Below, in pieces: positions 2,139-37,572 of a DNA stretch of 64,000 nt. Location: contig CP158635.1 in NCBI GenBank assembly GCA_050273025.1, positions 1,240,001-1,304,000 on the forward strand. The letters are read 5' to 3'. The position numbers were made by a program, and so were the translations under genes. The notes beneath the pieces were generated by a model. It was not told where the DNA came from and made no database searches. It saw only the letters and a program-made list of their open reading frames with translations. This DNA comes from Cenococcum geophilum. Its lineage: Eukaryota. Position 1 is the stretch's first letter; each line of letters begins with the position of its first letter.

Positions 2139-2321
2139 GCGGTATAGAGTTTTACCAATTCTATCGTTAAATAGGCCAATTAGGATTTTCTATCCCTTAG
2201 ATAGAAAATCGCTATTAGCTTAGTTAAGGCGGTAAGCAGAACTATCTTTATAGTAGGTCTTAGTAAGGCAAATCTAACTAATTAAATAACTTTAACTGGT
2301 GGTTAAAGTTCTTTAACATCT
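2139..2321. promoter_or_regulatory. Shared palindromic CCAAT module, copy A (Gypsy-1 3' UTR); function inferred
   Basis: ccaattaggattttctatcccttagatagaaaatcgctattag at 2176-2218 plus aatctaactaattaaataactttaactggtggttaaagtt at 2271-2310; homologous to 11922-12057, 14193-14357 and 37499-37572. Confidence 0.55.
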
Positions 2322-2411
2322 TATATATTACGTAATTATATTATAAACATTATAACATATTTTAAGTTCTTTTTAGTTTTAAGCTTTTTACTATTATATT
2401 TTATATATTCG

Positions 2412-3433
2412 TGTTAGGGGCCGTCGAAAACGGACTCTGCACCTGTACGTGGTGACGGCTACGAACCTGGGTCTTAAAGTTCAGACCCAGAGCCAACGCA
2501 GAGACGTCGCATAGCGTGCGGACAGGACCTGGTGGTGGTTGTGGGCGTTAAGGGCGGTAGTGAAAAATTTTCGGATAGTGAGATCTTGAAAACCACTACT
2601 GTTGGCCCTTTACAATACGACGACTACCACTATTCTCCTATCTGGGGCACCTATACGATCCAACGTGGATATGTGGTACTTAATAAACATCCCCAAACCT
2701 TAACTAAAAGCATTAACGACCTTATATCAATAAACGAACGCGCGCACGAACGAATGAACAAACAAGCAAATATACGGCCCCTCCTAACCCCCAGGGCGAT
2801 CGCCCGCGGAGCATGCGGTCACTCGCCGTCTTACTACCAAATACTACCTAGCAGCCTGGATTGCGACCCACGGTTTTCCCCATTGTCTTCTTTCAACGGA
2901 GTGGTGACCCTTAGGAAGGGCCTAGCTGGGGCCTAGGCACAAAAGATACCCAAATACAACATATCCCGCTCGCTTATTAGTATTACGGTAGTTAGAACGG
3001 ATGAATCCCCCTTACGCCTTCGGTGGCTCTAGGGGGGGGGAGGCAAGGCGTATATAGCAACGCAATGGTTATAGGAGATAGCATACAGGGGGTGGTCAAG
3101 ATATGGGAAACGACTGTACGGCAATTAATTAGCAAGGCCTAGCTAGGACGTAGTAAACCCTAGCTTTGGATAAGCTAGAGAAGGAAGCAGTAGTTCCTAA
3201 GGAGTTCGAACATCCAAGGAGGACAGGACGTAGCCGTAGGCCCGCAGGGCCGCCGCTACGGACGGACATGGCAAATTAGGGTTTTTCATCCTACTGAGGT
3301 GGCTCATAGGGTTTTTCCTCCCCCCCAGCAGCAAGGGTTTTTTCCCGTCAATATTACTTTTCCCTTATATACGGAGTAGTCTGCGTGGGGCTAGATAGCA
3401 TCCATATCAGACGTTAATCAAAGAAGAATTATA
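2412..3433. mobile_element. ~1-kb GC-richer insertion in the Gypsy-1 3' UTR, probable solo LTR
   Basis: Sharp composition change. Starts tgttag and ends ..aattata (possibly RIPed ..ttaca). Flanked by (tata)ttcg on both sides, so the TSD length (4-8 bp) is ambiguous. Confidence 0.55.
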
Positions 3434-3941
3434 TTCGTATTAAGTAATAGTTATTTACCTTTATATTATATTTATCTAGCTAAAGTAGGCCGCAAAGAAT
3501 AGTCCTTATAGAATTCCCTTACTAGGGAAGGCGCGTTAGTTTTAATCTAGTTATAGGTTTCCTAAGTTTATATTTTATATCCTTCCCACTTAATAACGAG
3601 TTTAAATTATTTAAATTATATTTTCTATTGTATATTATTAATTAAGTTAATAAAGTAAAAACCGTTACTATTATTAATAATTATAAGAGGTAGTGGCGGC
3701 ACTTTATAAGTTATAAGTTTACCCTTTAAAGGTTATAGTAAGCTTATGTAAAACGTTAGATATATTTTTATTTTAATTAGCAGTTTAAGCTTATAAGCGT
3801 ATAGGTTTAGTCTTTTTTAATTTAGTATAGGCCTATAAACTTCTAATTAAGTTTCTTTAAGGGTTATTAAGTCTTTAGGTTTTATATATTTAGGTAAACT
3901 ATATTACCTTCCTTAAAGTCCTATATAGGGGCTCGTTCTTT

Positions 3942-5070
3942 TTTTTTATTTTTTATTTTTTATATCCGTTGTATTATACTATGTACAATACTGCGCATGC
4001 AGCCTCTAGGCTATGGCGCTATAGTTCTATATACATGAATCCTTTCTAGGCAGCTTAACATATACTAGTAGCTATGTCCTAGTAGTTTATAAATCCCTAG
4101 GCTAGGGATTTACAGCTTCCTAGTAAGATACTAGGTTGCTAACAACTATTAGGTAGTGAGAAAACGATAGGAAAATAGTAGAAAAAATTGAAATAAAATT
4201 ATAAATAATCCTAACGCCTGTCCCTGTCCTTTTTATAGTTCATTTCTGTCCTTTTGCTTTCTATGGTCTATCTACTAGGACTTTTAGTAGGAGTTGCCTC
4301 CTTCTAGAGATCCTTCTGCTCTTAGCCACTTCCCAGTAGCTATTTTTGTCCTACTTAAGAATAGAAAAAGCGCCCTTCTTCCTTTCTTTGTACAAAAAAG
4401 CTTCTCTAAGGAGAGAGAAGAGCCTATTTGTCTTTGCATTTCCTTTCTATCTTCCTAATGTAGTCTGCATTCTAGTAAGAGGTGCGTAGGGGTTTGTACC
4501 GCGGTACAGTCCTTAAAGCATCTACCTTCTTTATCCTTCCCTATTGTTTTAGAGAAGGATTTAAAGAAGCCTTTTCCTAGTTTTAGTTGAAGGAAAGCTG
4601 ATTGTAGCTTTTTAGGATATTTATCCTTAGTAGCTTTAAAAGAAAAAGGGTAGTTTCCCTTACAGATTCTAGTATAGTGTTTTCCTTTGCTTTTATTCTG
4701 TTGCCAATTGTTTTTCCACTATTCTAGTATCTTTTCTCTTGCTTATTTCCCTAGGTGGGCTAGGGAAGAATAAGAAGATTGTATTTTTCTTCTAGAGAGG
4801 CCCTTTTTAGCTAGTTTATCTGCTATTTCATTTCTATAAATTCCTAGGTGGCTAGGGACCTAATAGAAGTTAATAGAGATATTCCTGCTAGCTAGATAGG
4901 AACAGCTTTGCGTAATTTTAAAGACTAGTTCTTGCCCTCCTGTAAGAGAATTAAGCTGTAATCTCTTAATAGCCGCTTGGCTATCTATAAAGATATAAAC
5001 CTGTTTCTCTTCTAGTCTTTGTTATTTTAGGTGTTCTAAGGCCCTATAGACTGCATAAAGCTCTGCGTCC
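3942..5070 (-). mobile_element. 5'-truncated LINE (Tad1-like) copy 1: RNase H domain, 3' UTR and A-rich tail
   Basis: T-rich tail at 3942-3961; TSD ata(g/a)gggctcgttcttt at 3925-3941 and 5071-5087; MDAELYAV, (W)VPSH and ADKLAK RNase H motifs; homologous to 21202-23550 and 62476-62882. Confidence 0.9.
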
Positions 5071-6899
5071 ATAAGGGCTCGTTCTTTATTTATATACTAT
5101 TCCTATACCGTTTAAGCATATACTAATTTACTTTATAATAGTTCCGTTAACTGCTTTATTTAATTAGTAAAGTTATATATATTAATTAGTTAAATCCTCT
5201 TAATTATAGGTCCTATTATATTAATTTTGGGTTATAGTTTAAATCTAAGTTAAGGGTCTTATCCGTAGGTTATATAGAATAGCGTTACGCTTATTAATTT
5301 GTTTCTTATATTATTTATAATAAACTTAGCTAAAGGTAGCCACTTTTCCTAGTTATCTTATAGGTAAGAGTAGTATATTTATAAGTATTATTCTATAATT
5401 GCGTTCGCAATTTTAGTTTAACTATCTATCTTTAGATAAAATATAGTTAAGAGTTATATTTATATACTTAATTATTTATATAGGGCTTATTAAAAGTCTA
5501 AAATAAACTAGCTTTTATAGTTAGATATTATTAAATTAGGAAGTCTATATAGCTTAAAGACGTACTTAATAAAATATTCGGCGACTAATATTGCATTAAT
5601 TAAGTCTAAAGGAATTATATATTGTATTTTTATAAAATAGTTAACAATTACTATAATATTTATAAACCTATTACTATTAGGTAGGTTAACTATAAAGTTA
5701 ATTAAAATATCTCGCTATCTTTATATTAGAATTGGTAACGGTTAAAGTACTCCTTACTTCTTTATATAAGAGGTCTTCCTATATACGCATATTTTATATA
5801 TTTAAACGCATTTTTATATATAGTTGTGTATTATAAGCTAATAATATACTTATTAAATAATTTTATAGGTCTTTATATAGCTAGGGTGCCCTACTATAGG
5901 GGAATTATATATAAATTTAAGTATCTTAAATTATAAGGGTTTAGAATTCGGGCCTACTATTTTTTATTAATAGTATAACCAATTATTACAGATTTTGTAT
6001 TTAGTAAGTATAATATTCTTATATTACCATTTCCCTATTTAAATTACTTTTATTATATCTACTATCTAAAGGTTATTCTTATATTTATGCTTTATTAATT
6101 TATTAATTTATTCCTATTAAGCTCCGCGTTTAAAAATATAGGGTGTAGTTTCTTAAAGCGTTTAGGTTGTAGTAGAATTTATAATTAATTTATAATCTGT
6201 TTATTAGAGGCGTTAATAGGTAAGTTTTATAATTATTATATTAATAAGTTAGGCTTCTAATTAAGTTTACTAGGTTAGTATATAATCTTAAAGTTAAATT
6301 ATAAGAGGTATTCGGCCTAATAAATTTAGCATTATATTTGTCGGGAATGAGGCAAGCGGTTATTACGTAACGCCGCGGCACTAGCGTGGCGAGGAGTCTT
6401 AAGCTCCTCGCCCTCCCTTATTCTAATAAAAGAAGCTTTATTAACTAATATTACTATAACCTACTTAAGTAGTTGTTATTGGTAAGTCACCCTATATAAC
6501 TAATACTAATTAGTAGTTAAATATATAGTTAACTATAGAGCAGCTAGGTTTTTAAATAGAAGAGATAGTCTTATATAAAGGTGCTATATGCGCTTATATA
6601 GAATAGATCCCGGCGATACTGTGCTACCTTAAACTTGCGGAAAACTAGTAATAGAAGTGTTACTAAGTACTAGGAGATACTAAGTTGCGTTTATTATATA
6701 GAACAACTACGTTTATAAAGATTTGGTTAAGTACTTTAGGTTAAAAGTGTTACTAAACCTATAGTCCTAAGTTAACGTCCGAAACGCGTTAAACGACGTC
6801 TAAAACGCGTTAAACAATATCTTAAATTGCCTACCTCTTAACAGTAAACCTACGAGATCCTATAAAACCGAAAATCCTACCTACCTTTAATATATAACA

Positions 6900-9800
6900 C
6901 CCCGTTAATTCTATACCTACTATAGCGTTAACCTATTTAAAGAAGTATAAGAAGGATATTAACCCGGAAATATGGAATACTAATATAATTAACTTTGTAA
7001 ACGCTAAGCAATAGGACCTAAATGGATTCTTATTATACCGTATAGTATACTATAAAGATAGCGAATATAATAATACTATGCTATGGTATTATATAAAGGA
7101 GGACTTTATTAAATAGATAAAGGAAATATAAACTCCTATAAAGAAGGATATTATATAAGACTTCCGTAACTTCTTACGGGAGTATAGAGTGTTTATACTA
7201 ATAGATGGGGGTATTATTAGAGATAATATTTGGGAGCAAGTTATTAACGTAAAAGAAAAGCACGAATAGACTCTATAAGAGATTAAGCACTAACTACGCA
7301 CTATAAGGAAGCTTAACTTATAATAGAACCTAAGTAATATACCTCTAAAGACAAACCTACCTCCACCTTTAACTCCTCTATATCTAATTTAACCCATAAC
7401 CTTAATATTAAATACTATACCCTAACAAGAGCAGATATAGGATCCTATTGCTTCGCGATTTAATAACCCTTAGACTCTACTGACTAGACCTACGTCCCCA
7501 CTACAGCCTATAATGCAACTCCTACCTCCTCTATCTTAATCTTAAATTAGAGGTAGTTTAAAATTGCTTATAGAGCTTACGAAGCTCTACTTAAATTAGG
7601 AGAAGAAGTTTAGCGGGGAATTATATAATATTCTTAATTCAAAACTACGTATCTTTTATAACTATTGCTAGAAGGTAGAAATAGAGTCTAATTAATACTA
7701 CAACGCCTATTCCGTTATGCTTAAGGGCCAAGCTAGTACCTTCTATTATAATTATTTAGCAGGAAAAGGATATAATTTTAACTGTATAATATATAAGTTA
7801 AGATACTATTTTAAAATAGAAGAGAATAAGTAGCAGTATTTATTAGAATGGAGAGAGACTACCTTTTTAAGGATTATTGCTATAAACCTAGGTGTCCCCC
7901 GGCTTAATTATCTTTAAAAGCTCTTTAATTAACTTTAAATAATTTAGCGTGGTTTATCCGAATTATATTAAAAGGATTTTAGCCTATATAATTAAGTTAT
8001 TAGCGTATACTAAGGCGTTAAAGAATACAACCTTATACTTTTTAATCCTATAAATACTTATAAAGGAGTATATGCTTAATTAAGATCTTCTATTAGCACC
8101 GCTCTACGCTCTTAAGAAGTATAGTAATTTAACACCTAACTCTAACCTACTTTAATTAACCTGCCTAACTAATATAATTATAACTAGACTAATTAAATAT
8201 ATAGTGGCCGGGGTAGATAATATAGTAAAGGGTATAATTAATAACTATAAGGTAAAGGTGGAGGCCCTTATAGAGGTTTATTTTAAAGTAATCGCTAGAA
8301 AAAGTGCTATGTTTGTAAGAAACCGAATTGCTAATTAACTAGGTATTCTCTTAATAAGTAAAAGGAGGTATATAATAAGTTTTGCCAAAGTATAAGAAAT
8401 GTTAGAAATTATAAGGTTACTATAGCCTACTTCTAAAGCTTCCTGGTTTAATATAAAGGCGTAGAAGATCTTAAGAGTAAGGTTAATAAGGCCGAACAGC
8501 TCCTTATAGATATAGAAATTAAGGACTACTTACCTAACCAATACTTTACTAAGTATAGTGAGGTAGATAGTAAATAAACTATTACTATTCTTAATAACCA
8601 ATCTACGCTCTACTCTATTACGAAGTTAGATATCTTTAATAAGCTATAGAAGAGTTTTACATTCTCCTTTAATAATAGATACTTAGCAAACATCTTCTAT
8701 AGTATTATACCAGACACTAGAGCCGCAGGAGTATCTATAGTAAGAGAACCTTAAGTTTAAGCCCTTTAGTAGCTTAATAGCTCTATTTAGATTAACTATT
8801 TAACGGCAGGCTAATATATAATTTGTTTTAGTATGGGTACTGCAATCTCTTTTAGCACAATTAGGGTCCAAACCCCCTTAGGGTGCATTACTTTCTACAT
8901 TATTCTTATAAATACCCCGTTTCTATTTTACATTAAAGATATAAATAAATTAGGCGTTAAGCTTAATAACCTTAAAAATATACTTATTTAGGGAGATAAT
9001 TGGGTGCCTATTATACGCAAGTAGGGTTACCCCTAGTTGCTCCTTTATTAACTAGAAAAGAGTATTACTTAGAGCTATTTAACTAAGTTAGAGTTACGTT
9101 AACTATACCGTTGTTTTAGCCACCCCTCTATTTACTAATTACTTAAGGTTCTTTAGTAAGTAGGCTATAAAGTTAAGGTTAAGGCAATTAAGCACCTTAT
9201 AAAGTACTACTATTACTATTAAATAAACTAGAAGTCCCCTAGCCGATTTAAGTTTACCCTTAAAGATAACTACAACTTTAACTTCTATATTATTATTGAC
9301 GTTATATACCTTAGCGGCAAGCTAGTACTCTAAGTTATTAACTTCTTAACCTCCTTTTAAGCCGCACGTTTTTTAAAGGATATATTAGCTAAAAACGTAT
9401 AGGATACCCTATAATTATGCTAGATTAATATCTACCTAGAACTCCCTAATTAAATCGTTTATAATATAGGAAAGAATATCTTATCTATAGAGTTTTAATA
9501 ATAGATAAAGGTAATGGCAATTAAGGTTAAGGAAGTCCCTATTAAAGTATATAATAGTATTAAAAAAGTGGAGCGATATTACGCGCCATTACGCCGCATA
9601 TATAAGATTATCTCTTTAGAACTAAAGGATACTAGCAAAAAACTTACCTTATAAATAGCTATTAAAGCCATTAACGATTCCGCTGGCCTAAATAGACTTA
9701 TACCTATATTACTAGTCTTTAGCGCCTACCCTTAAATAACTAATAATTCTCTACTATCCCCCTCTATTATATAATAAGCTAAGGCTATTTATAAGGTAAT

Positions 9801-11895
9801 AAAGGAGGTATAATATCTCTACGCTATACGCTAGGTTAATAACGCACTAGGAATAAGAAATGGTCTAAATACCTTAACTACGCTTAATCTACCACTCTAG
9901 TCTAAGGTACGCATATGGCGTAAAAAGGGAGGATAGTTAGGCCTATATTAACTTATTATAATTAATAGTTAGACTTATATTATTTAGATACCTTATAGAC
10001 CTACTTAATTCCGTTTAACTATTATTAAGCCTTACTATAAAGATAACAGTTCTAAGCCTTTATAGGATGCTATAGGAGATGCCCTAAAGGAGAGCTATAA
10101 TTAACGTACTCTAAAAGGCAACCATAATTCTAATACAATTGTAGTAGATACGCCGTAACTATAACGCGGTAGAGGTCGCCTAAAAGGATTATAAAATCGC
10201 TAATACCTTATTAATTTTAAAGAGTAATTTATTGCCGCTATTAAGAATAGAGTTAAGTTATTAATGGCCTTTATAACAGCTAAGGAGAAGGCTAACTTTA
10301 AGCTCGCAAAATAGCTTTAAAAGGAAGGTTATATTATAACTCTAGGAGCTCCTTTCCAAGCATCCGATAAGCAAAAGATTAATAGTCTTATTACGAGAGG
10401 AGTCTTTAAATTTAAGAAGTATAACCCTACTAAATTTAGTAAAGTTCGTATCTTTAAGTTAAAAATAGTTAACGAGATTAAGGGCAAAGCTACTAACGCC
10501 CTATTTAAGAAATTAAGGCTTATTATCTAAGGTTATAATAATAATAGTAAGGAGGTAATTTTTACGCAATCTCCTATAATTTAACGAGCTAGTTAGCGAG
10601 TTATTGTTATACTAGCTCCCTCCTTAATAAAGAATAAAATGGCGGTCTATTTATGAGATATTACTTAGGCCTATACCTAATTAGAGACGCACCTTTAGCG
10701 CTTAATATTAGCATACCTTTTAAAGTAAATTCGCTACTAATATCCCGAAGATATAATTATGGTTATGCTTAAGCCATTATATAGAATTGCAGAGGTAGGA
10801 ATTTACTAGTAGGCTACCTACAGTAAGCACTATAAAGAGAAGCTTTTAATAACTACTTCTATATTTAATCCCTGCTTCCTTATTATAACTATAGGAACTC
10901 TATTTAGAATTATTGGCATATAAACTAATAATATAATTATCTTAGGAGACAACTAGTTCTTAGCTCTTAAAGAAGACGAGCTAGTAGAGGTAAATCTTAT
11001 AGCAAAGCTAAAGGAAAAGCTTAATTTAATAATACTATTACTTTTTAATAGATGCATCCTCTCCCTAAATAAGGATTTTATTGCTTTACGCCAGAAGGGT
11101 TAAGGTAAGAAGATTAATGTTATTAACGTTAACTCTCCAAAATAAGAATATATGGAGTAACGCGCTTATAGAGCTTATATTACTTCTATTTATTAACCTA
11201 AGGCTTTATTTAATCTCTCTATTGCCGCCTAATACTAGGAACTAACTAAGGATAACGTTCTTGCCCTAAATAAATATCTTTTTTAGTAAATAAACCATCT
11301 TAATTAGGGACTACTTTATATGCCTATTAATCTTCCTACCGCTAAGCTCTTTATATTTATTAATAGACTGTTTATAAATAATAAAGATTTTAGCTCCTAG
11401 CTAGAATATAAGATTATTATCGCAAACGAATTTACTGGAGAGAATAGCTTTATAATCTACGGTAATCTTATCTATTAGAGCTTAATTAAGAGTAAACGCG
11501 TTACTTAAAGCGCTCTAGCGTTAGAGATATATAAAATAGTTAGCGGAGTTAATATGGTAATTATAATTGGAACTACCTTAAAGATAATTATAGATTAACT
11601 TAAACTTCCTATTATCCCTATAATTATATACACCGACTTATATTCCCTCTATAAGTATTTAGTTAAGCTTGGTACTATAAAGGAGAAGCGCCTTATAATT
11701 GATATTATAGTACTTTAGTAATCCTACGAGCGTTAAGAACTCTTTAAGATTTAATAAATTAATAGCTAAGATAATATAGTAGATGTAATAACGAAGGTAA
11801 ACCTAAATAAGGCACTAGAGACGTTTGTTAATATAAATACTTTACGTATACGAGTTAAAGGTTAGGTTAAAAGGGAGTCCCTAGAAATTTCTTAG
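6900..11895 (+). pseudogene. Copia-1 gag-pol polyprotein, RIP-inactivated
   Basis: KCYVCKKPNC knuckle (~8300), PDT(G)AA protease (~8710), integrase VERYYAPLRR, RT TQSP.I.R, DIT(Q)AY and LKPLY, RNase H TD.YSLY. Confidence 0.88.
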
Positions 11896-11921
11896 TTACG
11901 TAAGGTCTTAAGATATCTAGG

Positions 11922-12057
11922 AACTTTAACCGCCGGTTAAAGTTGTCTAATTGGCCAGATTCTATAGACCCTAACTTAACCTAGCTAATTAGGATTTTCT
12001 ATCCCCGGGATAGAAAATCGCTATTAGCTTGCTTATAACTAGCGCCTTAGCGGCCCT
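11922..12057. promoter_or_regulatory. Shared palindromic CCAAT module, copy B (Copia-1 3' UTR); function inferred
   Basis: aactttaaccgccggttaaagttgtctaattggccagatt (11922-11961); ctaattaggattttctatccccgggatagaaaatcgctattag (11985-12027); ctagcgccttagcggccct. Confidence 0.55.
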
Positions 12058-14192
12058 AATATAATATATACTTATAACTCTAAGCAAGAAAGCACTACGT
12101 CCTAAAAGGTAAATTTTAGGATAGCGAGACTTATATTATAATGGCAATAGTAAGTAAGAAAGATTAGTATTTGTTACGCTAGTTAAGTAGCATTTATATA
12201 TAGATGGCAACTATAAAAGAAGAGTTGCTAGTGTTGGGAATAAGGCAAGCGGTTATTATATAACGCCGCGGCACTAGCGTGGCGAGGAGTCTTAAGCTCC
12301 TTGCCCTCCCTCATTCTAATAAAAGAAGCTTTATTAACCAACATCACTGTAACCTACTTAAGTAGTCGTTATTGGTGAGTCACTCTGTATAACTAATAAT
12401 ATTAATTGCTTTATAGTTATAAAAGTACTATAGGTTTTTATAATCCGTTAATACGTGTATTAGGAATAATAATCCTTTAAGTTTTAAATACTATTATTTA
12501 AAACATCTAATAATTATAAGTAGTTTCTTATTATAAATCTTATAGTTTAATTCAGTAGGGGTATGTTTTTAGGAGAGAAAGGCTACTAGGCATAGCTCGC
12601 CGTTCTTATTATATTATAATAACACTCCTTCTAGTATATAATTAGATAAGTCTATTTTAATAATATATTTAAGGTTTAGATTAAAGTAGGTAAGAATTAA
12701 AGTAGTTATAAAATAATATTTTAGGTTATTAAAAGCTTATTTATATTTAGTAGTCTATTTAAATCTTATGTTTTTCCTTATTAAGTTTACTAATAGCTAA
12801 ATAATTTTTAAGAAGTAATTAATAAATTAATAATAAAAATTTGCGAATCCTAGAAAATTTTAGATGTTTTATATACTACTAAGACTTTCCTAGTTTATAA
12901 TTATAGCGATTTTTTTAGGGTCTATTTTAATTCCATTATAGGATATAATTAGGCCTAAGTATATAACTTTAGACGCGTAGAACTTATATTTCTTAATATT
13001 ACATTATAAGCCTATGTCTTATAGGCGTTTAAGGACTATTTAGATGTACTTTTAATACTTAAAAAGTAAAGATAAATAGATTAAAATATTATTAATATAC
13101 GCGGTAATAAATATATTAAGGAATTCGCGAAGCGTATTATTAATATATTACTAAAATATACCAGGACCGTTCTTTACACTAAATAGTATTACTAGGTATT
13201 TAAAAAGTCCCTATTATATATAGAAAGCCATATACTTCTTATCTCCTTTATAAATACGGATTTAATTAAAGGCAGCGACTATATTAAGCTTTATAAAGTA
13301 TTATACTTTTATTAAGTAGTTAAGCGTTTCTTAAAGTAGAGGAATTAGATATTAGTTTTAAATTATAATTATATTTAGGGCTTAATAATTAATATAGAAC
13401 CTTAAGCCTCCTTTAAGTTTCTTAATAAATAGTAATTAACTAGGGCGAATAAATCCTTTCTCTAGGTGCTCTTTAAGGTATTATTATATTATAAGCAGCT
13501 CTTCTTACGATATACCGTATGATGGGCTGAACTTTAGCATTATACTAAGTTTAAGTTTTATCTTAAAATTGTGCTCATCTTAATGCCGGGGTAGTTAGTT
13601 TATAAATTGTTTCTTAAACATATTAATTAGATTATAATATTCTTTAAGTATAAAAGGTTAGGGGTTAATATATTGCTTTAGTTCTAACGCCTTCTTAATA
13701 TCTTTTAGTATTATATTAAAGATCTTATAGTCTCGTTTTCTTACTAATAAATAAAAGGGTGCGGCTTATATTATATAAATTTTAAGGGGTTTTAATATAT
13801 TATCTTCGCATTTATAAGGTAAGGATATGGATAGGGAGTCCAATGATAGAATAATGGGTATATTATATAGACAGAGACAAATCCTTAAGGGAAAAGGAGG
13901 AGTCTGTGTGCGAGGTAGGAAGGGTTTTCCCTAGGCACGTGCAGAGCACGTGCCTTACGGGCAAGTCACCCCTGGGTTGCCCCAGGGTCGCCCATACCTT
14001 ACGGCTATATAACTATCTACTTAGGTTTTACCTAACAATGCCCCCCCCTTTAAAAAGGGTCGTTCCCAATCCTTTATATACTTAAGCCTTAATAAAACCC
14101 CATAAAAAACCTTAGTAAGAAAAAAATTTAGAGGGAAAAGAGCGTCTTAATTTTGCGTATAGAGAGACGGGTAGTATATATACGCGGCGCGA

Positions 14193-14357
14193 AGATGTTA
14201 AGGAACTTCGACCGGCGGTTAAAGTTGTCTAATTAGTTAGATTTGCCTTACTAAGACTCCCCTACATTTAACTGAGCTAGTAGTGATTTTGCATACCTGG
14301 TATAGAAAATCCTAATTGGTCTATTTAACAGGTAGAGCTAGTAGAGCTTAATACCGT
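14193..14357. promoter_or_regulatory. Shared palindromic CCAAT module, copy C (Gypsy-2 3' UTR); function inferred
   Basis: aacttcgaccggcggttaaagttgtctaattagttagattt.. followed by ctagtagtgattttgcatacctggtatagaaaatcctaattgg; reverse-complement homolog of 2139-2321. Confidence 0.55.
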
Positions 14358-14879
14358 TGCCTAAATTTAGTAGACTAGAAATATTCCAAAAGCTTACTTG
14401 CGTAGGCAGGTCGCTGGTACCTCGTGGGTTAGTTATAGGTTATTCGCATATAGCCAGATTTATAGACGGTAAGGCTATATACCTATTAAACCCGCCACTG
14501 ACCCTGCTTTAGCCTTACGCTATACCGGCGTAGCGCCGTGTATACTTCGCGGGTAGGTTTATAGGTTACTTGCATACAGCTAGGTTTAGGACGGCAAGGC
14601 TATATGCCCGTTAAATCCGCCGCTGACCCATGCTTTAGCCTTATGCGTTATCTATATAGCATATACGTGGAATAGTGTAAGTTGTTAATACAGGTTACCA
14701 CTAGCGGGTCACCAGTAGGTTATGGACCCCAGTTAAATAGACCCTAGTTATAAACGGGCGTAGGATATTAATAAATCAAAACTTTACCCCGTATGTACGC
14801 CGCAGTTCTTATAGCAGTCATTGCTTATTCTTTAATCCCTTAGGACGTCCTCTGCTCCGCTTTAATACAGGTTATATTT

Positions 14880-25057: not shown

Positions 25058-26086
25058 GTCCGTTTTAACAACTCTACCTTTAGCAAAATCCCTACTATTT
25101 TAGGCAATAACTTTGCTTAAATACTACCTGTCGTCCCGCGGGGGAACTGCGCAGCTATTATAGGTGCCTACCTATAGCGGTTATTCCTCTAGCCTACCTT
25201 CTATATACTATTCCTATAGTTAAATATACGTGTCCACTAGGGTAAGGTTAATTAGTAGTTTATAGCTTAGGTATAGAGCTTATCCTATAATGTGTCCCTA
25301 TTTAGTAGCATTAGTATCCTACCTAGTATAGCCTAGTTCCGGTTTAAGGAGCCCTTTTATAGGTATATATACCCTCTATAACTGCTTACGTAGGTATATA
25401 CTACTCTTAATACCTTCCGTAATTGCGCTATTTTAACTATTTATAATAATACTATGGCTAAGATTAATAAGGCTATCCTTATACGGCTTTACGGCCTTTT
25501 AAGGACATTTTTTTATAGATACTATAGAGTAAAGTAGAGAAGAAGAAGATAGTAATATTATACTACCGCCGCTAGACCTTCTGCAAATACTTAATCCTAA
25601 TAACTTACCTCCGTTAAAGCTTTCCCTTAAAGTAGGCGCACCTATAATTTTTTTTTATAAAACCTCTACCCTAAGGAGGGCCTCTATAGCGGCACCTGTA
25701 TAGTTATTACGCGCCTAGGCCACCGCTGTATTAAAGCCTAGATACTTAGCGGCGGCTTTTATAAGCAGCTACGGCTAATCCCTTATATTAAGCTTACCTC
25801 TATAGAGGGAGAACTACTGTTTATTATTAGTAGAAGGCAGTTTCTAATCTGGTTATACATTATTATAACTATAAATAAGTTATAGGGGTAGTCTTTTAAC
25901 TTTATTAGGGTTAATTTACGTATACTAGTCTTTACGTATAGGCAGCTATATATTATACTATTAAGAGTAACGAATATAGGTAGGCTTTTACTATTACTGC
26001 CATAGAATAGGGATAGTATAACTGCTAATATTATATATCTAGAAGTGTTGCTATAGTCTTAGGGCTAAGGCGCAGGGGGACGGTAT

Positions 26087-28144: not shown

Positions 28145-31100
28145 TAGACTTGCTAATAAGTAAGCAAAACCCTGCTTGCTTGCTTGCTTGCTTATCTTAA
28201 TAGTAAGTAAGCAAGCAAGTAAGAGGCCTTATTTTAGGCAATTAAGCAAGCAAAGGGGGGGTTTACTTGCTTGCTTGCTTGTTTATTGCTTGTATATAGT
28301 TAATTTAGTAGTAGCGGTAGTTGGTAATAGACCTTTGGTGTTTTTAAAGTGGCCGAGGTAATGCAAATAGTGTAAACATGCCCTTTTGGGCAACCGCTAA
28401 GCCTATTTTAAACGGTTTTCCGCGCCGACCAAAAGTCTTACGTAGCTTACAGTAAATAATAAATACCTTCCTATGCCTATCCGCCACTAACTCCACCAAT
28501 TTAATAGAACCCACTTAGCCACCGCTACTACTATGGTATAGGACCCTACCAACGCGAATGTGAGCGCGATAGCCGCAGAAAACCCCTTAGCCCCTACAAT
28601 CTTATTGTTAGAAGCCGAGCTTGCAGACGACGATAATATTAACAATTATGATGGCATTAACTGGAAACGACTTCCGGATTTTTAAAAACCCTATTATAGC
28701 TTAAAGCGGACGCCTAGCTTTATCTATAAATATAGGTATAGGTGCTAAAGTCGTGTAAAGCTGGAGTAAATTATCTTTATCTGTAAGTACTGCCACTAAT
28801 ATAAAATTCTTAACTGTGGAGGTCCTGGTTGTTATAATATATTAAATGCTAATACTACTGCTTAAACGTATCTTGCTAAAAATACTCCTGGTTATAGATA
28901 TGATAAAAATGGAGAGATTATATCTAAATTAAAAAAGCGCGGGCATACCGTTCTTAAGCAACTTTAGGCTTTAGGCTAATACGTCTCTTAAGAAGCTGCT
29001 AACGCGATTATTGGCGGCTTTAATACATCTATATTTAAGTAATTAGCTATTAATTGGCTTACCGAAAACAACCACCTGCTACGAGAGTTTGAAACTTTAT
29101 CTTTCCGCCGTATAATATAAATTGCAAATCCTAAGGCTAAGCGCGTACTCTGGCTCAATTATTAAGCGGTAGCAGACTACGTACTGGCCGACTATAAAGC
29201 GTACCTCCCCTCTATTACTAAGACTCTCGCTGCCTCCAGATTACTCCTATATATATCCTTTAATGGCTGGCAGACCCCTAATGGTAAGCTTGCTCTTACC
29301 GGCGTATATATATATTACCTTAACGAGGAAGGTCGTATAGTGGACTATATGCTTACTTTACCTACGCAGCTCGGCTAGCACTTAGGAATTAACTACACGG
29401 AAGTTATTAGTAACGTCCTTAATACGTTTAAGATTACAAAGGAGCAGCTTGGCTACTTTATCACTAATAACGCCCACATAAATAATACTTGTTTAGATTA
29501 TCTGGCAGTTAAATTTAGCTTCAACAAAGCCTATAGGCGTGCCCGCTGCGCTTGCTATATCCTAAATCTAGTTGCTTAGCAGCTTATGTTTGGTAAGAAT
29601 AAAGAAGCTTTTAAAAACGAGGATGCGAATATACTGAAAGAAAAAGAGTTCCTAGAGTAGTGGCGAAAGGAAGGACCGCTTGGAACACTCTGTGACCTTA
29701 TTAATTTAATCAACACGCCTTAGCTTGTGCAGCTATTTAAGCAATATTAAGTTAATAAGAACATGCCTCCGTAGAAAGGCTTCTGAATTAAGCAGCTTAT
29801 TAAGCCCGTTAAGACCTATTGGAATAGCTACCATGCTGCCTTTAAACGAGCTACCGAACTCTAAGCGCCTCTTAATTTGTTTGCTTAGTACCAGATAATA
29901 AAATATAAAAAGGAAACAGCCTTACTTAGATCTAAAGGCAAGAAGGTGCCCGAGCCTCGCCGCTATATTGCCGTTGGCGGCTTAAACGCATACGATTGGT
30001 TAATTATTAATAAATACATGGAGATCCTTAGCCCTCTTAAAGAAGCCACGAGCTTAGTAGAAGGCAGAGGCAAGGCTAGTAAACACGGCGCGATTTAGGA
30101 GGTCATTCCTACGTTTAATTGGCTGCTTAGAGTCTTTAAAGAAAAGAAGGATTACGTCGCTAAAGCTATAACAGAGGACTATCCGAATTAAGAAGCTATA
30201 GAGGATTATTTTATAATTAATCTAAACGCGGCCTGGGCAAAGCTGAACGACTACTACCTTAAGCTTAATAATACTCCAGTATATTACGTAGCAGTCCTTC
30301 TACATCCTTATTTTAAACGCTTCTGCTAGAACGCGTAGAGGGATAGGCCCGATTAGATTATTAGCGGCGACGCTGCCTTTTAAACTCTCTGGCTTTAGTA
30401 TAAAGATCGTTTACTACCTTTATTAGCGGAACCAGAGGCACCGCCTCCAAAGCGCGTGCGAGCCTTTGCCGGCCGTAATAGTTATATTAACGCCTACTCT
30501 GGTGCCTTAATACTAAGCCAGATGGTCTGCGAGGACGAGTACGCGCGGTGGAAGTTGCTTAATTCTCTACTAAAGGAACACCCGTTGGCCTAGGATCCAA
30601 TTAAGTACTGGTGGCAGATGCAGATCGAGTTTCTACGCCTCGCCTAGTTCGCCTTTAATATACTAACTATACTAGCTATAAGCTCAGATTGTGAGCGAGG
30701 ATTTAGTGAAGCTGGTGATCTACTAGAGCCTCGTTGATCTAGGCTGCAGCCAATAATAATTGCTGCTCTACAATGCACGCGTTCTTGGAAGAAGATGGGT
30801 TATAAGAAGGCCGCTAGAGGAGGTAGTAAGTCTATTAATTTATATAAAGCTAATAGCTAATAAAGGAACAGCTGCTACACCTTCCTCTGCTACCTCCCGA
30901 TCCTCTACACCACGCCAAGATCGCGATATACGCGCTGCCTTTACCGAGTCTGCCTCATAAACTGCCTCCGAGCCGCGCGAACAAGCCTATACCTTATACT
31001 ACAATTGATTGGTGGAGGAGCTTAGTGGGCAATATACTGCTACTGGGCGAAGCCATGGCGGATTTTCTATAGAACTTCAAATTCTATTGTCTTGGCAAGC

Positions 31101-31234
31101 AATTAGCAAGCAAGCAAGCAAGCAGACGTGATTTTGAGGCTAACAAGCAAGCAAGCAAGCAGAGGGCTCCCAAATCGGGCAATCAAGCAAGCAGATGGGT
31201 GTTTTGCTTGCTTGCTTGCTTATCAGCAAGTCTG
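28145..31234 (+). mobile_element. hAT DNA transposon (3090 bp)
   Basis: TIR (c/t)agacttgct(g/a)ataag; 8-bp TSD agtaaagc at 28137-28144 and 31235-31242; subterminal (gcaa)n/(ttgc)n arrays at both ends. Confidence 0.95.
28533..30860 (+). pseudogene. hAT transposase, RIP-inactivated
   Basis: DGI.WKRLP, FICKYCH (BED-like), SF(D)GW.TPN, IT(D)NA..N(D)T, RCAC(H)ILNLVA, T.WNS, AAVLL(H)P and SSDCERGFS (dimerisation domain). Confidence 0.9.
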
Positions 31235-31470: not shown

Positions 31471-31667
31471 AGAACCTTCCTAGTATATTAGTGCTGCGTG
31501 TTAGTAGAGCTTTAGAGCTCTATATAGGTGAAGAAAAGAGACTATATATGCATGAGGTAGGTGGCGAAACGCTGATAACAATAGAGCTGACGACTACGAT
31601 TTGTAATTGCCACTGTCGACAACGCCACTCAGTCAGTATTTTGTAATGGGAATTGACAAAAGGGCTT

Positions 31668-31935: not shown

Positions 31936-33817
31936 TCTCCCCCTGAGCTTCGTTCTGCAGAGCTCTCGCAAAGCTCCACAGCTCTACGCAGAGGGCTGGC
32001 GGCGTGGGCGTTGGTGTTTACTGCGCGGCTTGGCGGTGCAGAGGTGGAATTAGGGCCTCTACGGCGACGAATTCCTCTTAACGTCGCGCGTGTATAAGGA
32101 GCTAAAGATCTCATAACTTATAGAGTAGGCTTTTCTCTATAATTTGGTGTAATTTTTATATTGGCAGGTTTTGTGGGAGGGTAAATTAATTTCGTTAAAG
32201 TTAATGAGGTCTTCTCATATAAACCGTGTTTAGGTTTCTACAAAGCTCGCCAAAGTGCCTCAGACCAAGAAAACGATTACCGTCCTAAATCAGCTTAGCG
32301 GACGGTGCGGATATTCCTATATCCGTAATCGATTTCTTGGTCTGGGCTTCTGAGGTAAGATTGACTCCATACTAACAGAATCACGTCTAAGTTTGCTAAG
32401 GTGAACGTCTAAGCTCGTTAAGGTAAATACAAATGTAACTGTAGATATACTATTGATATCGACGATTAATCTATATACGGCTAGTAGAAGGCTTAATTAA
32501 CACGCGCTTTCAACCATATATACTGGGGTAGTGTACGGAGGTCGCTAACATCTAAATTTGCACCTTCCTAATTAGGAAAATTGACTTACCGCCCACCGGC
32601 AGAATATGAATTTTAACGATAGACGCATTAAATTCGTTCCTAAAGCTTCAAATAAAAGGCAATATATAGATAATTGATTAATTAATTAATAAACTAGCTA
32701 TTTGGAAGGTGACGGCGACTGCGCGGGCGCAGCTTCCTGCCCTGCGACGACTCCGCTGAGGCCTCTACTGCTTAGGCGGAGGCCTCTACTGCTTGAGCGG
32801 AGTCCTCTGCGCCCTCGATTTGAGGCCTTAATTCTGCCTTCTTGGCAAGCTTTTGTATAGAGTCTTGGTGTTAAATGTATTCTAGAGGACGCTCTGCAGG
32901 ACGCTCTGCTTGGCGCAGACTGCCAGCAGAGCTACCAGCAAAGCCTTCCGCAGAGTCTCTAGAGCCTCCAGCAGAGCTACCAGCAGAGCCTGCCGCAGAG
33001 CTACCTGTCAGCCAGGCAGGTATCACGAATGACATATAGCTAGCTGATTGATATAGAGACACAGAATTGAACGATTGATCTGTTTTATTTAAGGTGGCTC
33101 CAAGAGCCCTAATATATATAATAGAATTGACCCCCTATAGGGGTCCCTAGAGGGTGGTGTAATAAGACGATATTAGGCTAATACTAATATCTAACAGCCG
33201 TCGTCACAGGTCAATATTACCCATAGGTAAAGCTACCTCCGTGGCCAACACACCCCCTTAGATCTGGCGTAGAGCGGCAGAGCTGGATTACTGGATTAGG
33301 TAGTCGTGATAGACGAGCTAGTAGTAAGCTTTGCTAAGCGTTAATTAACTAGATGTCTAATATCGCGGAGCCCTACCACGTCGACGAATTTTTAATGATT
33401 TTGCTTTAATAGAGCTTTAGTTAGTCCATCTGCAACTATCTCGCTTATCGGTACCCATTATACAACAAAGCTTCCATTTTAGACTTTTTGGCGAAGCCAA
33501 AATTAATACTAGCGTCTATATATTGCTTGGCAGCATCTACCTCAGCAACGCACAATGCTGAGACCTCCTGCAATATTCGCGAATATCGAACGCAGTCACT
33601 ACGTGGCTAATTCGCTTTTAATATCGCTAAACTTATTAATATTCATTATATATCTATCATCCATTCGTTTAAGAATTATTTTATAACGCTATTACCGCTT
33701 ATGACCAACTAGGAGATTTGTACGCGTGTATAATCCTAATAAGCAAACCCACCTGGACGACCTACCTTAACTACACTATCGTCTATAACCGCTATACCCT
33801 CCTTTACTAGTTCTATA

Positions 33818-34708
33818 ATGCCGTCTGAGGCTAATATACGCGCCGCTGCCGTAGAAGAGCGCGAAATTGCTAAAGAGTAAAGGGAATAAGCCTAAGATAA
33901 AAGGGAGATTTAGAAGTATAAGGAAGAGCGTAAAGCCCGCCTAGCGGAGGAGGCTCGCCAGTATAAATACCACCTGGCTTGAATGGCTTAATTATAGTTA
34001 GGCTTGGCCGCTTCGGCCTTATAGGCTACTATAACAGCTGCTATAGCTAATATCCTTGGTAAGCCTCTCCCTCCTAGCGTAAAGTCGCTTGAACTCCGCC
34101 TTCCTGGCGTTATAAAAAGGGATTACCTGGACATTTTTAAGGGTACCTTTAATCTAGTAAACCTCGCCTATCTTTAAGTCTATACCGCTTAAATTAAGAT
34201 CGCTGATGAGACACGGATTAAGAATGGTACTCTGGTTATAAGGAAGGTAAAGGTAGATAGGAAGCTATTTATAGATAAAGGCGTCTGGTTTAAAGGTTTT
34301 ACTAACTATATGGTTATTACTGGCACCCTTTATATATGCCCGCTAGACCTTATCGCTAGTATGCTTCTCTAAATAAATATAATTCGTACCTTATTAACCT
34401 AGTATATCTAGGTAGGTTGCATACTTAATTTAGCACTTAACTATTATACCTTTATGATAACTAATGGCTAACTAGAGCCCGCTAATTGGCAAATGCTAGC
34501 CTAGTATATAGCGCCATACCTTACGATGTTTAGTGCTATTAGCTTTACTGCCTTAAAGAGACCTAGATTAAATACCTCCTATACCTCTAATACCTGCCGT
34601 AGGTTTAATAGTAGAGGCTGCGATAATATAGCTTGTAAATACCCCTATAAGTGCTTAAAGTATAGTAAAGATTATACTGTATTATCTAAAGCTTGCGCCT
34701 AGGAATAG
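33818..34708 (+). pseudogene. Ngaro gag-like ORF1
   Basis: ATG at 33818; coiled-coil-like N-terminus; C-terminal CRRFNSRGC...CKYP(H)KC.K(C)..D(H) zinc finger. Confidence 0.8.
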
Positions 34709-36400
34709 TAAGGCGAACCTTATAAAGTAGGGTCTAGCCTAATAATAACACTAACTTTAATTATATGCCTAGGACCTAGGCCTAATACGTTACTATTATT
34801 CTCTACCTTTGTAGAGGCGAAGGCTCTTTATTACTCTCCATCGCCCCTAAGGATCTTAGCGTGGCACTTCCTTTTATTTAATTACCTGGGCAATCTACTA
34901 GCTATCTTAGTAGGTATTCTAACCTATAGCTGCGAGATAGGAGCTGAGTCTATCCCTACCCTAAGATCTTATAGGAACCATAACTCCTCTTAAAATAACG
35001 CCGACCTTATCTCTAAGAAGATAATATTAGACCTTAAAAAAGGACATATTAGAATTACGACAGGGCCTATTATAGTCTTACTTCTTAGCCTAGTGCTAAA
35101 ATTGGATGGAGAATACCGCCAAATTTACGATCTCTCCTTTCTACTAGTATCTTTAGTTAATGACGCAATTCTAGAAGAATATAGAGCACTAGTATACACT
35201 ATAGTTACCGCTATTTAAGCCTATATTATTTCTGTAGGTTGTAGATGTCTATTGCTTAAAAGAGATATTAAAGACGCGTTTTATATAGTCCCCCTATCTT
35301 ATAGGGTAAGAACATTAATGGGCTTCTCCTGGGAAGGTGTTACCTACTAGGAATACTGCCTATCCTTTGGTCTTTAAACTGCGCCGCTTATATTTAACCT
35401 CTTCGCGGAAGGCCTGCACTAGATACTCTATTTATAACTACTTTATAAGGTAGAACACTACCTAGATGACTTTATCTTTATCCTTGCCAACCTAAATAAC
35501 TTAGCGGCTGTTACCTAGACTTACATCTCTATTACTAACTCCCTAGGTATCCCTTAAAATAGCTCTAAAGATATAGCAGGAACTGTTATTAAAGTTCTAG
35601 GATATACTATTAATACCGTATAAATGTAAACGTAATTATTACTATAGAAACAATTATGTGCTATTAAGAAAGTCACTACCGCACTCTAATATGGCTTATT
35701 ATCATTCCTTTAAGCCTAGTAGCTTGCGGGCTACCTTATATAGTGCGCCCACGTAATTAGATTTGGTTGATCTTACTCTAAATCCCTCTAGATTTTTATT
35801 ACTGCTTAGCTAGAGACTTTGGTAAATAAGTATAAACCTAGGCGATTTAGTACTAAGTTACAAAGTGACTTATATATCTAGCTTAACCTACTTACTACGA
35901 GTAATAGGGTATTATTCTTTAATGATATTAAGCGTACCTATATTTATTTCTTTACTAACGCCTCTACCCGGTTTAGGTTTAGCGGCTTTTACTTTTTTAA
36001 AGAACTTAAATACAAGGATGACTAGTAGTGGTATATAGCTAACTTCCCTTAATTTTAGGCGTTTAGTATATTACCTAAGCCCAGTTAATAAGTAGACTAT
36101 ATTAATCCAAAAGAGATGCATGCTATTGCTTACGCATTTAATCTATGGTCTACCAACTGGCAGTATAGCGCGCTATCTATTTATACTAATAGTATAGTGG
36201 TTTACTAGGGCATTAAGAAGACTGTTATCTGTAGTGTAGCAAATAAATCGCTCTGTAAGATTATGCTAGCTACTATAGCTTATAATATTACAATATCCGC
36301 GAAGTGGATCCTAGGTGATTTAAATGGCTTGGCTAATACACTATCTTAATTCTAGGCCGCGGCTATCTATTAGTTCTACCTACACTAAGCCCTTAATTTA
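34700..36400 (+). pseudogene. Ngaro reverse transcriptase-RNase H
   Basis: KRDIKDAF, LSFGL.TAP.IFN, HYLDDFIF (35456-35479), FT(D)AST, INPKEM.AI, WI.GD.NGLA(D).LS. Confidence 0.88.
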
Positions 36401-37467
36401 TTACTACTAAAGCTAATAAGTTTTTAATAGGTGCCGTAAACCTAACGGACTACTTACAACCGCCTATAAACTTTAAAGATAATGTTAACGCGCTATCCGA
36501 CCTTTACGCGCTCCTTCTCTAAAACGGCCTTACGCTAGCAACCCGTAGAAACTATTCCTTAGCAGTTAATAGCTGGGAGTTATACTGCGCACTTAAAGGA
36601 GTCTCCCCTTACCTGGCCAAGCCGCGTAAACTAGGCGAATAGATTACCCGCCGCGCGTTTGGTACCTCCTAGCTATAAATAGGCAGGCTTAAGGCCGAAA
36701 CCTTACAAGCCTACGTTTCCGTAATTCGCTCGCGCCACGTGGATTATGGTATCTTAATTGCAGCATTTAAGGATCCTATAGTATACCGATTACTTACTAG
36801 AGCAGCCGCTATCTCTCCCTTAGTAAAAAAGAATAAGCAACCTATTACTAGGGATATTCTAGCCCAGGTAGTAACACACGGCCTATTGCTACTAGATGTT
36901 AACACTAATGCCGTATTTACCCTCGCATTTACTGGATTTCTACGGATAGGCGAGATTACGTATATTATGGCGGAGCTTAAGAACCAAACAACCTTCCTAG
37001 CGAAAAAGGCCACTTAACACGATATCACCTTTACGCCTAGTGGGATAACATTCCGCCTTAAATGGAGTAAAGCCGACAAGTAATACTAGGGCGTTAACGT
37101 CGCTATCGCGGTGGTAGGCGGCCCATTATACCTAGTCGCTGCTATAATAAAGCTATTTAATAGGGACCCTTAACCCCTTAACTCTCCCTTATTTAGTCTT
37201 AATAGTAAACCCTTTACCTCTTTAGGGGTTCGTAAGATCCTTTCCTTCTATCTAGTAGCTGCTAGGATTAACCTAAGTAGTTACTTAAACTACTCCTTCC
37301 GCCGGGGCGCTGCCTAGTTCGCTAAAGATTTAGGGTGTTTATATTAGCAAATTTAGCAGCTAGGTTAGTGGTTATTAGAAGCCTTTCGCCTATATATTAG
37401 GACTAAGACCACTAACCTCCGTTGCCTTAACTCTTACTTCTAGCGTAGTGTACCGCTCTTAGCGTAA
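36400..37467 (+). pseudogene. Ngaro tyrosine recombinase
   Basis: TRRNY, FTLAFTGFLRIGEIT (track ORF 36739-37017), LKWSKAD, (H)SFRRGAA, LG.W..EAFRLYI; R-K-HxxR-W-Y catalytic pattern. Confidence 0.9.
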
Positions 37468-37498
37468 GGATTACTAGGTAGTAGGTTAAGATATTAAA

Positions 37499-37572
37499 AG
37501 GGCCGCTAAGGCGCTAGTAGTAAGCGAGCTAATAGCGATTTTCTATGCTGGGCATGGAAAATCCTAATTGGT
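37499..37572. promoter_or_regulatory. Shared palindromic CCAAT module, copy D (Ngaro, after the YR stop); function inferred
   Basis: agggccgctaaggcgctag..gctaatagcgattttctatgctgggcatggaaaatcctaattgg; reverse complement of 11985-12057. Confidence 0.55.

Follow-up and report, generated by a model that had tools for sequence, protein, structure and literature searches.

Host elements and two palindromes in the window

The window, a 64-kb stretch of the Cenococcum geophilum genome, holds four retroelements that each carry the same 43-bp motif, here termed M, which consists of a CCAAT box, a 27-bp dyad and a reverse CCAAT box. Host 1 is the outer Gypsy element (1746-25059, minus strand), with LTRs at ~1746-2053 and 24752-25059, a PPT at ~2054-2068, INT at ~5100-6338 and RT/RH at 12402-13813; it is broken up by nested insertions and RIP, and Pfam returned RVT_1, RT_RNaseH and a weak Integrase_H2C2 match. 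Host 2 (6339-12401, plus strand) has LTRs at 6339-6508 and 12232-12401 and ends its INT-RT-RH region at ~11880. Pfam found no match on its own RIP-damaged frames, and it is called Copia from its INT-RT-RH order and a tblastn link (E 1e-19) to an RVT_2-positive frame. Host 3, a further Gypsy element (13815-20583, minus strand), has LTRs at 13815-14037 and 20361-20583 and a PPT at ~14038-14060. Host 4 (33506-38317, plus strand) comprises the repeats A1 (33506-33618), B1 (37740-37895), A2 (37893-38005) and B2 (38162-38317), with RT at ~35200-35600 and YR at ~36480-37440. Pfam applied directly to its RIP-damaged YR frames gave no YR match; its A-pol-B-A-B repeats, RVT_1 and YR homologues, one of them with PF00589, make it an Ngaro element. 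The assignment of the hosts to two Gypsy elements, a Copia and an Ngaro in the first-pass annotation is upheld, for the Copia as a probable one.

All four reported copies of M were recovered, against a mean of 0.08 matches in 100 shuffles of the 64 kb, and genome-wide (178 Mb) we found ~3,150 M sites and none in the control. Orientation relative to the host differs, as had been claimed: copy 1 (2176-2218, plus strand) is reverse to host 1, copy 2 (11985-12027, plus strand) and copy 3 (14277-14319, minus strand) have the sense of hosts 2 and 3, and copy 4 (37529-37571, minus strand) is reverse to host 4. The second arm and second box of copy 3 are degenerate family-wide. Each window copy lies between the end of coding sequence and the 3' repeat, a placement that had been put forward as general but has exceptions genome-wide, with M inside an LTR in 29 of 122 M-selected loci and ~3 kb from the 3' LTR in one gag-like family.

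The hosts had also been said to share no other nucleotide similarity, which proved incorrect, as longer shared blocks and a second, overlooked palindrome, P2, surround the M copies. Copies 1 and 3 have 192 bp in common at 72%; here a flank-M-flank-P2 block (2132-2322, plus strand) is 72% identical to 14364-14192, and its orientation within the host is opposite in the two Gypsy families. Copies 2 and 4 have 123 bp in common at 78%, the relic of an LTR clan around copy 2 (11954-12074, plus strand) being 78% identical to 37604-37482. The inverted LTR-clan relic in the Ngaro element (37482-37710, minus strand) has a conserved right flank at 37482-37528 and 8/10-bp TTCTGCC-type repeats at ~37590-37710. 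P2 occurs at 3,586 sites genome-wide and is common to the surroundings of M copies 1-3: at 2278-2310 (plus strand), with a RIP-changed CCAAT box at 2278 and a 23-bp dyad at 2288-2310 (axis +22); at 11922-11954 (minus strand), with the dyad at 11922-11944 and CCAAT on the minus strand from 11954; and at 14204-14236 (minus strand), with the dyad at 14204-14226 and a RIP-changed CCAAT box on the minus strand from 14236.

M and P2 differ in arm sequence and share their register from CCAAT, the dyad axis lying at +22 from the first C of the box in both (357 M and 126 P2 matches at +22). P2 has a single CCAAT box, without a pairing partner; the box, partly required by the search pattern, matches at position 1 in 159 of 162 sites, and purines occupy -2 and -1 in 161 and 162 of them. 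No third dyad type was found at the +22 register in 1.35 Mb of loci, mostly chosen for M or its hosts. The M centre is symmetric about a single base, with a 1-nt spacer between 13-bp arms. Of the three concerted inner variants described at first, acc/ggt is a RIP product (TG>TA, CA>TA) of gcc/ggc, leaving as true inner variation the centre base and one covarying pair, positions 19/25 (C:G or G:C), which is symmetric in 322 of 322 M sites although the search pattern left both positions free. Most site sets were picked with M patterns, so conservation of the core is partly built in. Sites with a half-site and no dyad number only 35, and independent use of the half-site by the host was rejected, as the listed matches read, from their letters, as decayed M.

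LTR source and captured relics

In full Gypsy elements (L087, L088) M occupies bp 37-80 of both 231-bp LTRs, and it has the same place in a solo LTR (L089). These are TG...CA LTRs with 5-bp TSDs at their ends, a CT-rich tract downstream of M and a PPT before the 3' LTR. The 3' UTRs of two Copia elements (L141, L164) embed the portion of the LTR that starts at M and ends with the terminal CA (84% over ~195 bp), four non-autonomous elements (L082, L084, L085, L142) contain part of the same M-to-CA sequence, and some Copia subtypes have a PPT-like tract and an LTR-like start ahead of M. These alignments give good support to the view that where M sits in a 3' UTR, in Copia, Ngaro, other Gypsy and non-autonomous elements alike, it belongs to a relic of a captured LTR that has been shuffled and inverted; for the shortest relics we infer the direction of transfer. 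The source would be a clan of short Gypsy LTRs beginning TGTGACGG, in which M appears to be placed in U3 as an upstream promoter element. Nested insertion or template switching during reverse transcription may have brought it into the 3' non-coding regions of other Gypsy, several Copia, one Ngaro and non-autonomous LTR elements, where trimming, inversion and exchange would later have altered the captured pieces while almost always sparing M.

M is a regular component of its host families. It is carried by 27-29 of the best 30 copies in each of the four families, a total of 111 among 120 copies that were anchored outside the motif, which answers the concern that it might be absent from other copies. 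In one Copia family, anchored on RNase H, 27 of 30 copies have M; its position is 115-228 bp where it runs forward, some of these copies also having P2, and 121 bp where it is reversed. In a successful Gypsy family of 297 candidates the second arm and second box are broken in 29 of 29 M-bearing copies. In the Ngaro family (115 search candidates) two of 30 copies have lost M through the same clean deletion, so it is no absolute requirement. M or P2 is found in at least four Copia RH clusters, at least six Gypsy integrase clusters, Ngaro and gag-only elements; the integrase tree (20 rows from 12 clusters) has weak deep support and was used just to count lineages. The proposed portability across superfamilies is supported, M being kept in Gypsy, Copia, Ngaro and non-autonomous elements. 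Among the 122 loci, 19 of which the script left unassigned, two are Ngaro and none was attributed to a DNA transposon or a LINE. A gag-like frame of 743 aa had no Pfam match and only two unnamed homologues.

Outside this genome, at least 125 metagenome loci with M appear to belong to the same families or to close relatives of them. The M pattern was absent from viral contigs and had just three partial, chance-like matches in prokaryote genomes, which were excluded from later counts; the P2 pattern had none in prokaryote genomes, and neither viral nor prokaryote contigs yielded any related YR locus.

A candidate CCAAT-dyad control site and its alternatives

The extended NF-Y/CBC consensus comprises the CCAAT pentamer, purines at -2/-1 and C-A at +6/+7. 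All three features are present in the sites, with the pentamer partly required by the search patterns and the contexts non-independent; the purine rule is weak on its own, because the contexts are related and positions -3 to -9 also hold their purine/pyrimidine class in 69-91%. Of 70 contexts, 39 have an A at M position -1 that faces a C (36) or a T (3) at +44, none of them in a RIP context, and the base at position 8 changes while spacing stays fixed, a pattern that fits spacing rules better than pairing. The unpaired P2 box at the register of M favours a composite DNA site for the Hap/NF-Y complex and a dimer. According to the available text of PMC7144946, the CBC covers 13 nt downstream of CCAAT, a span that coincides with the stretch of each M arm that does not vary (positions 6-18). 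The host HapB is intact, with 59 of 63 residues identical to the solved HapB 4g91_A.

We consider it moderately probable that M is a U3 promoter element of Gypsy-clan LTRs, captured by other retroelements and acting as a DNA Hap site and dimer centre. Two head-to-head Hap/NF-Y (CBC) footprints would flank a symmetric centre, either bound by a dimer or shaped to receive one, and P2, with its one CCAAT box, would repeat this geometry as a second module. The putative role is that of an enhancer or an open-chromatin anchor for element transcription, and the shared motif is most likely kept by unrelated elements as a common control switch. Points against this reading are the broken second arm and box in the Gypsy family of 297 candidates, the Ngaro copies without M and the strength of M as an RNA hairpin. 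A wider reading, possible but doubtful, is a retroelement-wide regulon in which M and P2 would serve as an interchangeable transcription or anti-silencing licence, traded by recombination through the palindrome and captured by newcomers such as the ascomycete Ngaro; its partner factor could ride mobile DNA.

M and P2 might instead be RNA hairpins, or self-complementary dimerisation or packaging signals that enable co-packaging or copying of unrelated elements, with the CCAAT boxes as relics of LTR origin. We regard this as unlikely, although the M hairpin is strong on both strands (z -3.8 to -5.7), the 19/25 covariation is perfect, all classified hosts are of the gag/RT particle type, the module comes to lie in the genomic RNA of every host and one P2 variant is located in a 5' leader. 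A hairpin leaves unexplained why the unpaired P2 box is held at the register of M, and it is at odds with the A that faces a C across -1/+44 in 36 of the 70 contexts and with arm mismatches that are family-wide in one Gypsy family and recur in the leader P2 variant; moreover, there is only one covarying pair, and an Rfam scan of four loci gave no match over M or P2 and one sub-threshold match elsewhere in a locus. Stranded RNA reads from four of 24 listed runs (278 raw reads, mostly at 90-95% identity, 211 only partly aligned) cover M and the 3' part of the gag-like family in host sense, with few on gag. This profile decides nothing on starts or ends, since coverage by DNA reads rises there as well and the RNA reads may stem from other M carriers. 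Orientation independence, which had been offered as a sign of DNA function, is weak evidence because a near-perfect palindrome folds almost alike on either strand.

The flanks of M bear on a second alternative, that M has a function in the source LTRs alone and elsewhere is a neutral relic spread as a pause or crossover site for reverse transcriptase or DNA repair. The 322 unique M sites have 38 left and 13 right flank types in 70 combinations around a core invariant apart from RIP, which favours the control-site reading. On the side of the relic, the flanks switch precisely at M, and in some hybrids (L129, L189) both flanks are of the right type. Flips of the centre base, the presence of both inner variants in most families, the Ngaro copies without M and the tolerance of 3' UTRs for insertions would all suit such a relic. 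In 10 contexts with one flank type, transversion columns are 4/43 in M and 9/44 in the left flank, a modest contrast; selection may act on M, or its conservation could be inherited from the source LTRs instead of reflecting post-capture selection. A crossover site, however, would need non-homologous capture for its first entry into each M-free family, yet the many Copia, Gypsy, Ngaro and gag-only lineages above carry M or P2. Trimming within the one Copia family left M in 27 of 30 copies, and asymmetric 19/25 hybrids number 0 in 322 sites. We judge this relic quite unlikely.

A repeated genome segment carries six RIP-broken copies of a divergent HapB-like domain, an amplified cargo that hints at a partner factor on mobile DNA; neither M nor P2 was found in the two of six segments examined. 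Tyrosine-recombinase sites have 11-13-bp arms and a 6-8-bp asymmetric spacer. The HapB-like copies, the 13-bp arms of the dyad and inversions centred on it could suggest that M and P2 are insulators or targets of an element-encoded protein, either an anti-silencing factor or the Ngaro tyrosine recombinase at a lox-like site. This is improbable: the single-base centre of M is unlike YR sites, Ngaro makes up so few of the M-selected loci, M arms are unlike P2 arms, the examined HapB-like segments are without either module, and nearly all M copies are RIP-mutated, giving no sign of protection. Finally, a tiny free MITE or SINE inserted at random, suggested by the long terminal inverted repeat shape and by TTAA near both ends of some copies, is scarcely credible and was rejected, as position is fixed within families, flanks are LTR-clan sequence, TSDs show no excess (17 of 70 contexts and ~11 in shuffled pairs) and no free-standing copy was recognised among the 122 loci.

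Significance and comparison with known systems

Together, M and P2 average about one module every 27 kb. Should CBC and a partner bind them, a large part of the retroelement load would be under a single switch that has passed between superfamilies and orders as a captured piece of LTR, which would offer a direct, small-scale test of the co-regulation of unrelated elements and of how foreign elements adapt to a new host. Solo LTRs with M beside intact reading frames (L089) could also influence host genes.

Among CCAAT composite elements, the animal NF-Y/ATF6 element ERSE is CCAAT-N9-CCACG. M reads CCAAT-N9-CCAT(C/G), one or two bases off, and P2 does not fit; the ERSE partner factor is not known in fungi, and the likeness is probably a coincidence. 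The CBC:HapX bipartite site of filamentous fungi (CSAAT-N12-RWT), as given in the accessible part of PMC7144946, also combines CCAAT with a partner site at a fixed distance. It belongs to iron genes and ends in RWT, whereas M positions 18-20 are T-S-C and those of P2 are A-C-C, both in retroelements, and in M a pair of inverted CCAAT boxes flanks a dyad. A HapX site was rejected for M, which lacks RWT exactly 12 bp after CSAAT.

We found no description of the M module in the searchable literature. Modular, chimeric non-autonomous LTR elements of sugar beet similarly reshuffle shared segments among families, although the portion of that report available (PMC13570524) describes regional similarity, mainly among non-autonomous elements, and no conserved CCAAT-dyad core or passage into a YR element. 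LTR swapping in plants, in the accounts accessible, likewise involves LTRs donated among families. The Angio-domain of plant SINEs and the 5S promoter of Cassandra LTRs are short conserved modules in divergent bodies, as M is, but according to the same kind of partial accounts each is confined to one element type and neither is CCAAT-based. The RT, YR and A-pol-B-A-B repeats of host 4 are those of the Ngaro retrotransposons surveyed in PMC3783388; the available part of that survey has a single remnant in Ascomycota, compared with 115 search candidates and a resident Gypsy LTR piece here. Exchange between very different retroelement types is also seen in the bdelloid ORF3 pool of LTR and Penelope-like elements, which the accessible text of PMC5408684 attributes to RT template switching; there the cargo is coding, whereas here it is a non-coding element of 43 bp.

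Motif M in its hosts and across the genome

As the first-pass annotation reported, motif M (43 bp: a CCAAT box, a 27-bp dyad and a reverse CCAAT box) is found at 2176-2218, 11985-12027, 14277-14319 and 37529-37571, and its 27-bp core has these four matches in the window at up to three mismatches, against 0.08 expected, and no further ones. Copies 1 and 3 lie in two minus-strand Gypsy elements (1746-25059 and 13815-20583) whose PPTs adjoin their left LTRs, copy 2 in a plus-strand element that is probably Copia (6339-12401) and copy 4 in a plus-strand Ngaro element (33506-38317). The mutation process RIP has altered the entire window (TpA/ApT 1.3-2.0); this pattern, together with a HapB domain identical to 4g91_A at 59/63 residues, marks the host organism as a filamentous ascomycete. 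The hosts had been said to share no other nucleotide similarity, but copies 1 and 3 have 192 bp at 72% in common, copies 2 and 4 match over 123 bp at 78%, and a second palindrome, P2 (a CCAAT box and a 23-bp dyad), is common to copies 1-3; the acc/ggt arm, taken for a genuine concerted variant, is instead the RIP product of gcc/ggc. The outer Gypsy element has, in its 3' region, a GC-richer insert at about 2412-3360 that starts with TG and is probably a solo LTR; it is missing in most copies of this family, M lying 1,231 bp from the anchor in the window versus about 208 in those copies.

The 178-Mb genome contains 2,256 exact sites for the M core (control, 2), about 3,150 for a RIP-tolerant CCAAT-plus-core pattern (control, 0) and 3,586 for P2 (control, 0). 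Family copies were collected by searches anchored on coding DNA outside M (115, 1,348, 297 and 428 candidates for the four sets, the window's own copy included in each), with the best 30 of 40 scored per family. The expectation that M recurs in other copies of the same four families holds for most copies: M scores at least 35/40 in 28/30 Ngaro, 27/30 Copia, and 29/30 and 27/30 Gypsy copies, one or two distant matches in the last set possibly coming from neighbouring elements, against background best scores of 23-29. One additional Copia copy has M with a 1-nt deletion, and the same clean deletion has removed M from two Ngaro copies. A metagenome scan yielded at least 125 loci with the same M core; their Copia frames are no farther from the window's Copia than are the genome's own copies, so these loci enlarge the sample and not the taxonomic range.

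An LTR source and its dispersal

M is traceable to a clan of Gypsy elements, and the feature is real and larger than first reported. It occupies 37-80 bp within both 231-bp LTRs of these elements and also occurs within solo LTRs, and 5-bp TSDs flank the ends of the M-bearing LTRs. Among 122 distinct loci, selected by M and assigned to classes by script, M is inside clan LTRs in 29, behind Copia RT/RH in 38, behind Gypsy pol in 17, behind one gag-like frame in 14 and another in 3, and behind Ngaro YR in 2; for the 19 left without assignment, the inspected flanks belong to the same LTR-type families, and no DNA transposon or LINE host was assigned among these M-selected loci. Copia 3' UTRs contain the clan LTR stretch from M through its terminal CA, and non-autonomous elements contain part of it; certain Copia subtypes have, ahead of M, a tract of purines and a start resembling that of an LTR. 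The 3'-UTR copies of M are therefore LTR relics, captured pieces of such LTRs, although for the shortest of them we infer the direction of transfer, LTR to UTR. Taken by itself, the origin of these copies by LTR capture is very probable. An intact solo LTR carrying M (L089:7806-8036) lies ~1 kb from long open frames with no Pfam matches.

In a related LTR the dyad is missing and only the reverse box remains (loci L344 and L359), and families with this LTR have P2 in the 3' UTR; because these families were selected on P2, we treat the complementarity of M-in-LTR and P2-in-UTR as a hypothesis only.

The surroundings of M are shuffled. The 322 unique M sites (core with at most two mismatches, boxes scoring 13/16 or more; three prokaryote loci and all sites no more than 70 nt from the end of a locus were left out) have 38 types of left flank and 13 of right flank, in 70 combinations, and hybrid sites have right-type flanks on both sides (L129, L189). 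Within a single Copia family M is found in either orientation, in the presence or absence of P2 and with both inner variants; M is reversed in a fifth Copia type (L092), and the window's two Gypsy families carry the flank-M-P2 block in opposite orientations. M or P2 is found behind at least four Copia RH clusters, at least six Gypsy integrase clusters (scattered over a tree of weak resolution), one YR family and gag-only elements.

Anatomy and putative function

Counting the first C of CCAAT as 1, the symmetry axis of M is at position 22. Nearly all variation at positions 1-7 and 9-18 comes from RIP, position 8 is unconstrained, and positions 19/25 are C:G or G:C, with asymmetric cases in 0/322. 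The arms of P2 are unlike those of M, its axis is likewise at +22, and it has one CCAAT box without a pairing partner and purines at -2/-1. The HapX signature is not present in either module. The Hap/NF-Y CCAAT-binding complex (CBC) covers 13 nt beyond CCAAT, according to an extract of PMC7144946. Given this cover, M reads as two predicted head-to-head CBC footprints with seven central bases left free, and P2 as one predicted footprint beside a CCG-N-CGG centre. The spacing of this centre resembles that of Zn2Cys6 sites. A further conserved box, GACATCTT-like, adjoins both modules (on the right flank of P2 and the y-type flank of M), and TTCTGCC-type repeats of 10-bp period lie upstream of M at about 37590-37710 and in the clan's left flanks, yielding a TTC-N7-TTC spacing that resembles step-type heat-shock elements.

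In the best reading, which we favour slightly, M would be a composite site upstream of the LTR promoter in the source LTRs, captured by other elements and then kept as a putative DNA enhancer or open-chromatin anchor. Against this reading, the second half of M is broken in one large family, copies without M occur, the source LTRs could have bequeathed much of M's conservation, and M contrasts only modestly with its left flank after capture: transversions are found in 4/43 columns of M versus 9/44 of the left flank (right flank, 17/53, where the alignment has gaps). M also folds strongly on both strands, so orientation no longer argues for a DNA function, and action as an RNA hairpin is a minority possibility; a neutral recombination hub is a little less probable again, and a site for an element protein or insulator is improbable. 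That M is a MITE we consider negligible.

Other elements and precedents

A divergent HapB/NF-YA domain occurs as six RIP-broken copies inside a repeated segment of the genome (G000:C7:4783895-4784056, L359:2972-3202; C5:10238576, L360; C1:7592674; C4:19595002; C6:11953957; C6:7815363), two of them being 42-49% identical to host HapB over about 85 aa. The segment is at least 5 kb long, with 84-90% identity between copies, and also contains a solo clan LTR without M and a methyltransferase-like gene with more copies elsewhere. A little-mutated LTR element present in RNA runs (L079:2279-4888) has a P2 variant in its 5' part and M behind a 743-codon gag-like open frame with no Pfam match and two unnamed homologues.

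Within the window, M and P2 are both absent from a Tc1/mariner element (70-1646, 40-bp TIRs), and M from LINE-like 3' fragments (3938-5074, 21202-22695, 62473-62882) and a hAT-like transposase region (about 28200-31200), both recognized by translations and not Pfam, and from two foldback elements (21507-21936, 61661-62102). A 55-bp segment, 98% identical and inverted between two otherwise unlike elements (32538-32592, 59561-59615), holds a palindrome that resembles an Mcm1 site or, alternatively, resembles RIP-changed overlapping CCAAT boxes.

The Ngaro family at 33506-38317, with its 115 candidates, resides in an ascomycete; the available portion of a 2013 survey (PMC3783388) gives a single Ngaro remnant in Ascomycota. 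Its closest named YR homologue, at 48%, is from a Dothideomycete. The searchable literature yielded no account of such a CCAAT-dyad retroelement module, nor any description of a pair of dyads, anchored on CCAAT boxes with a constant geometry, that is carried across Gypsy, Copia and Ngaro elements; M could still be present in repeat libraries or in TE annotations published as supplements, and in the accessible part of PMC4522978 CCAAT appears as a table entry only. Segment exchange among retroelements is itself a known kind of process, as described in excerpts of PMC13570524 and PMC5408684.
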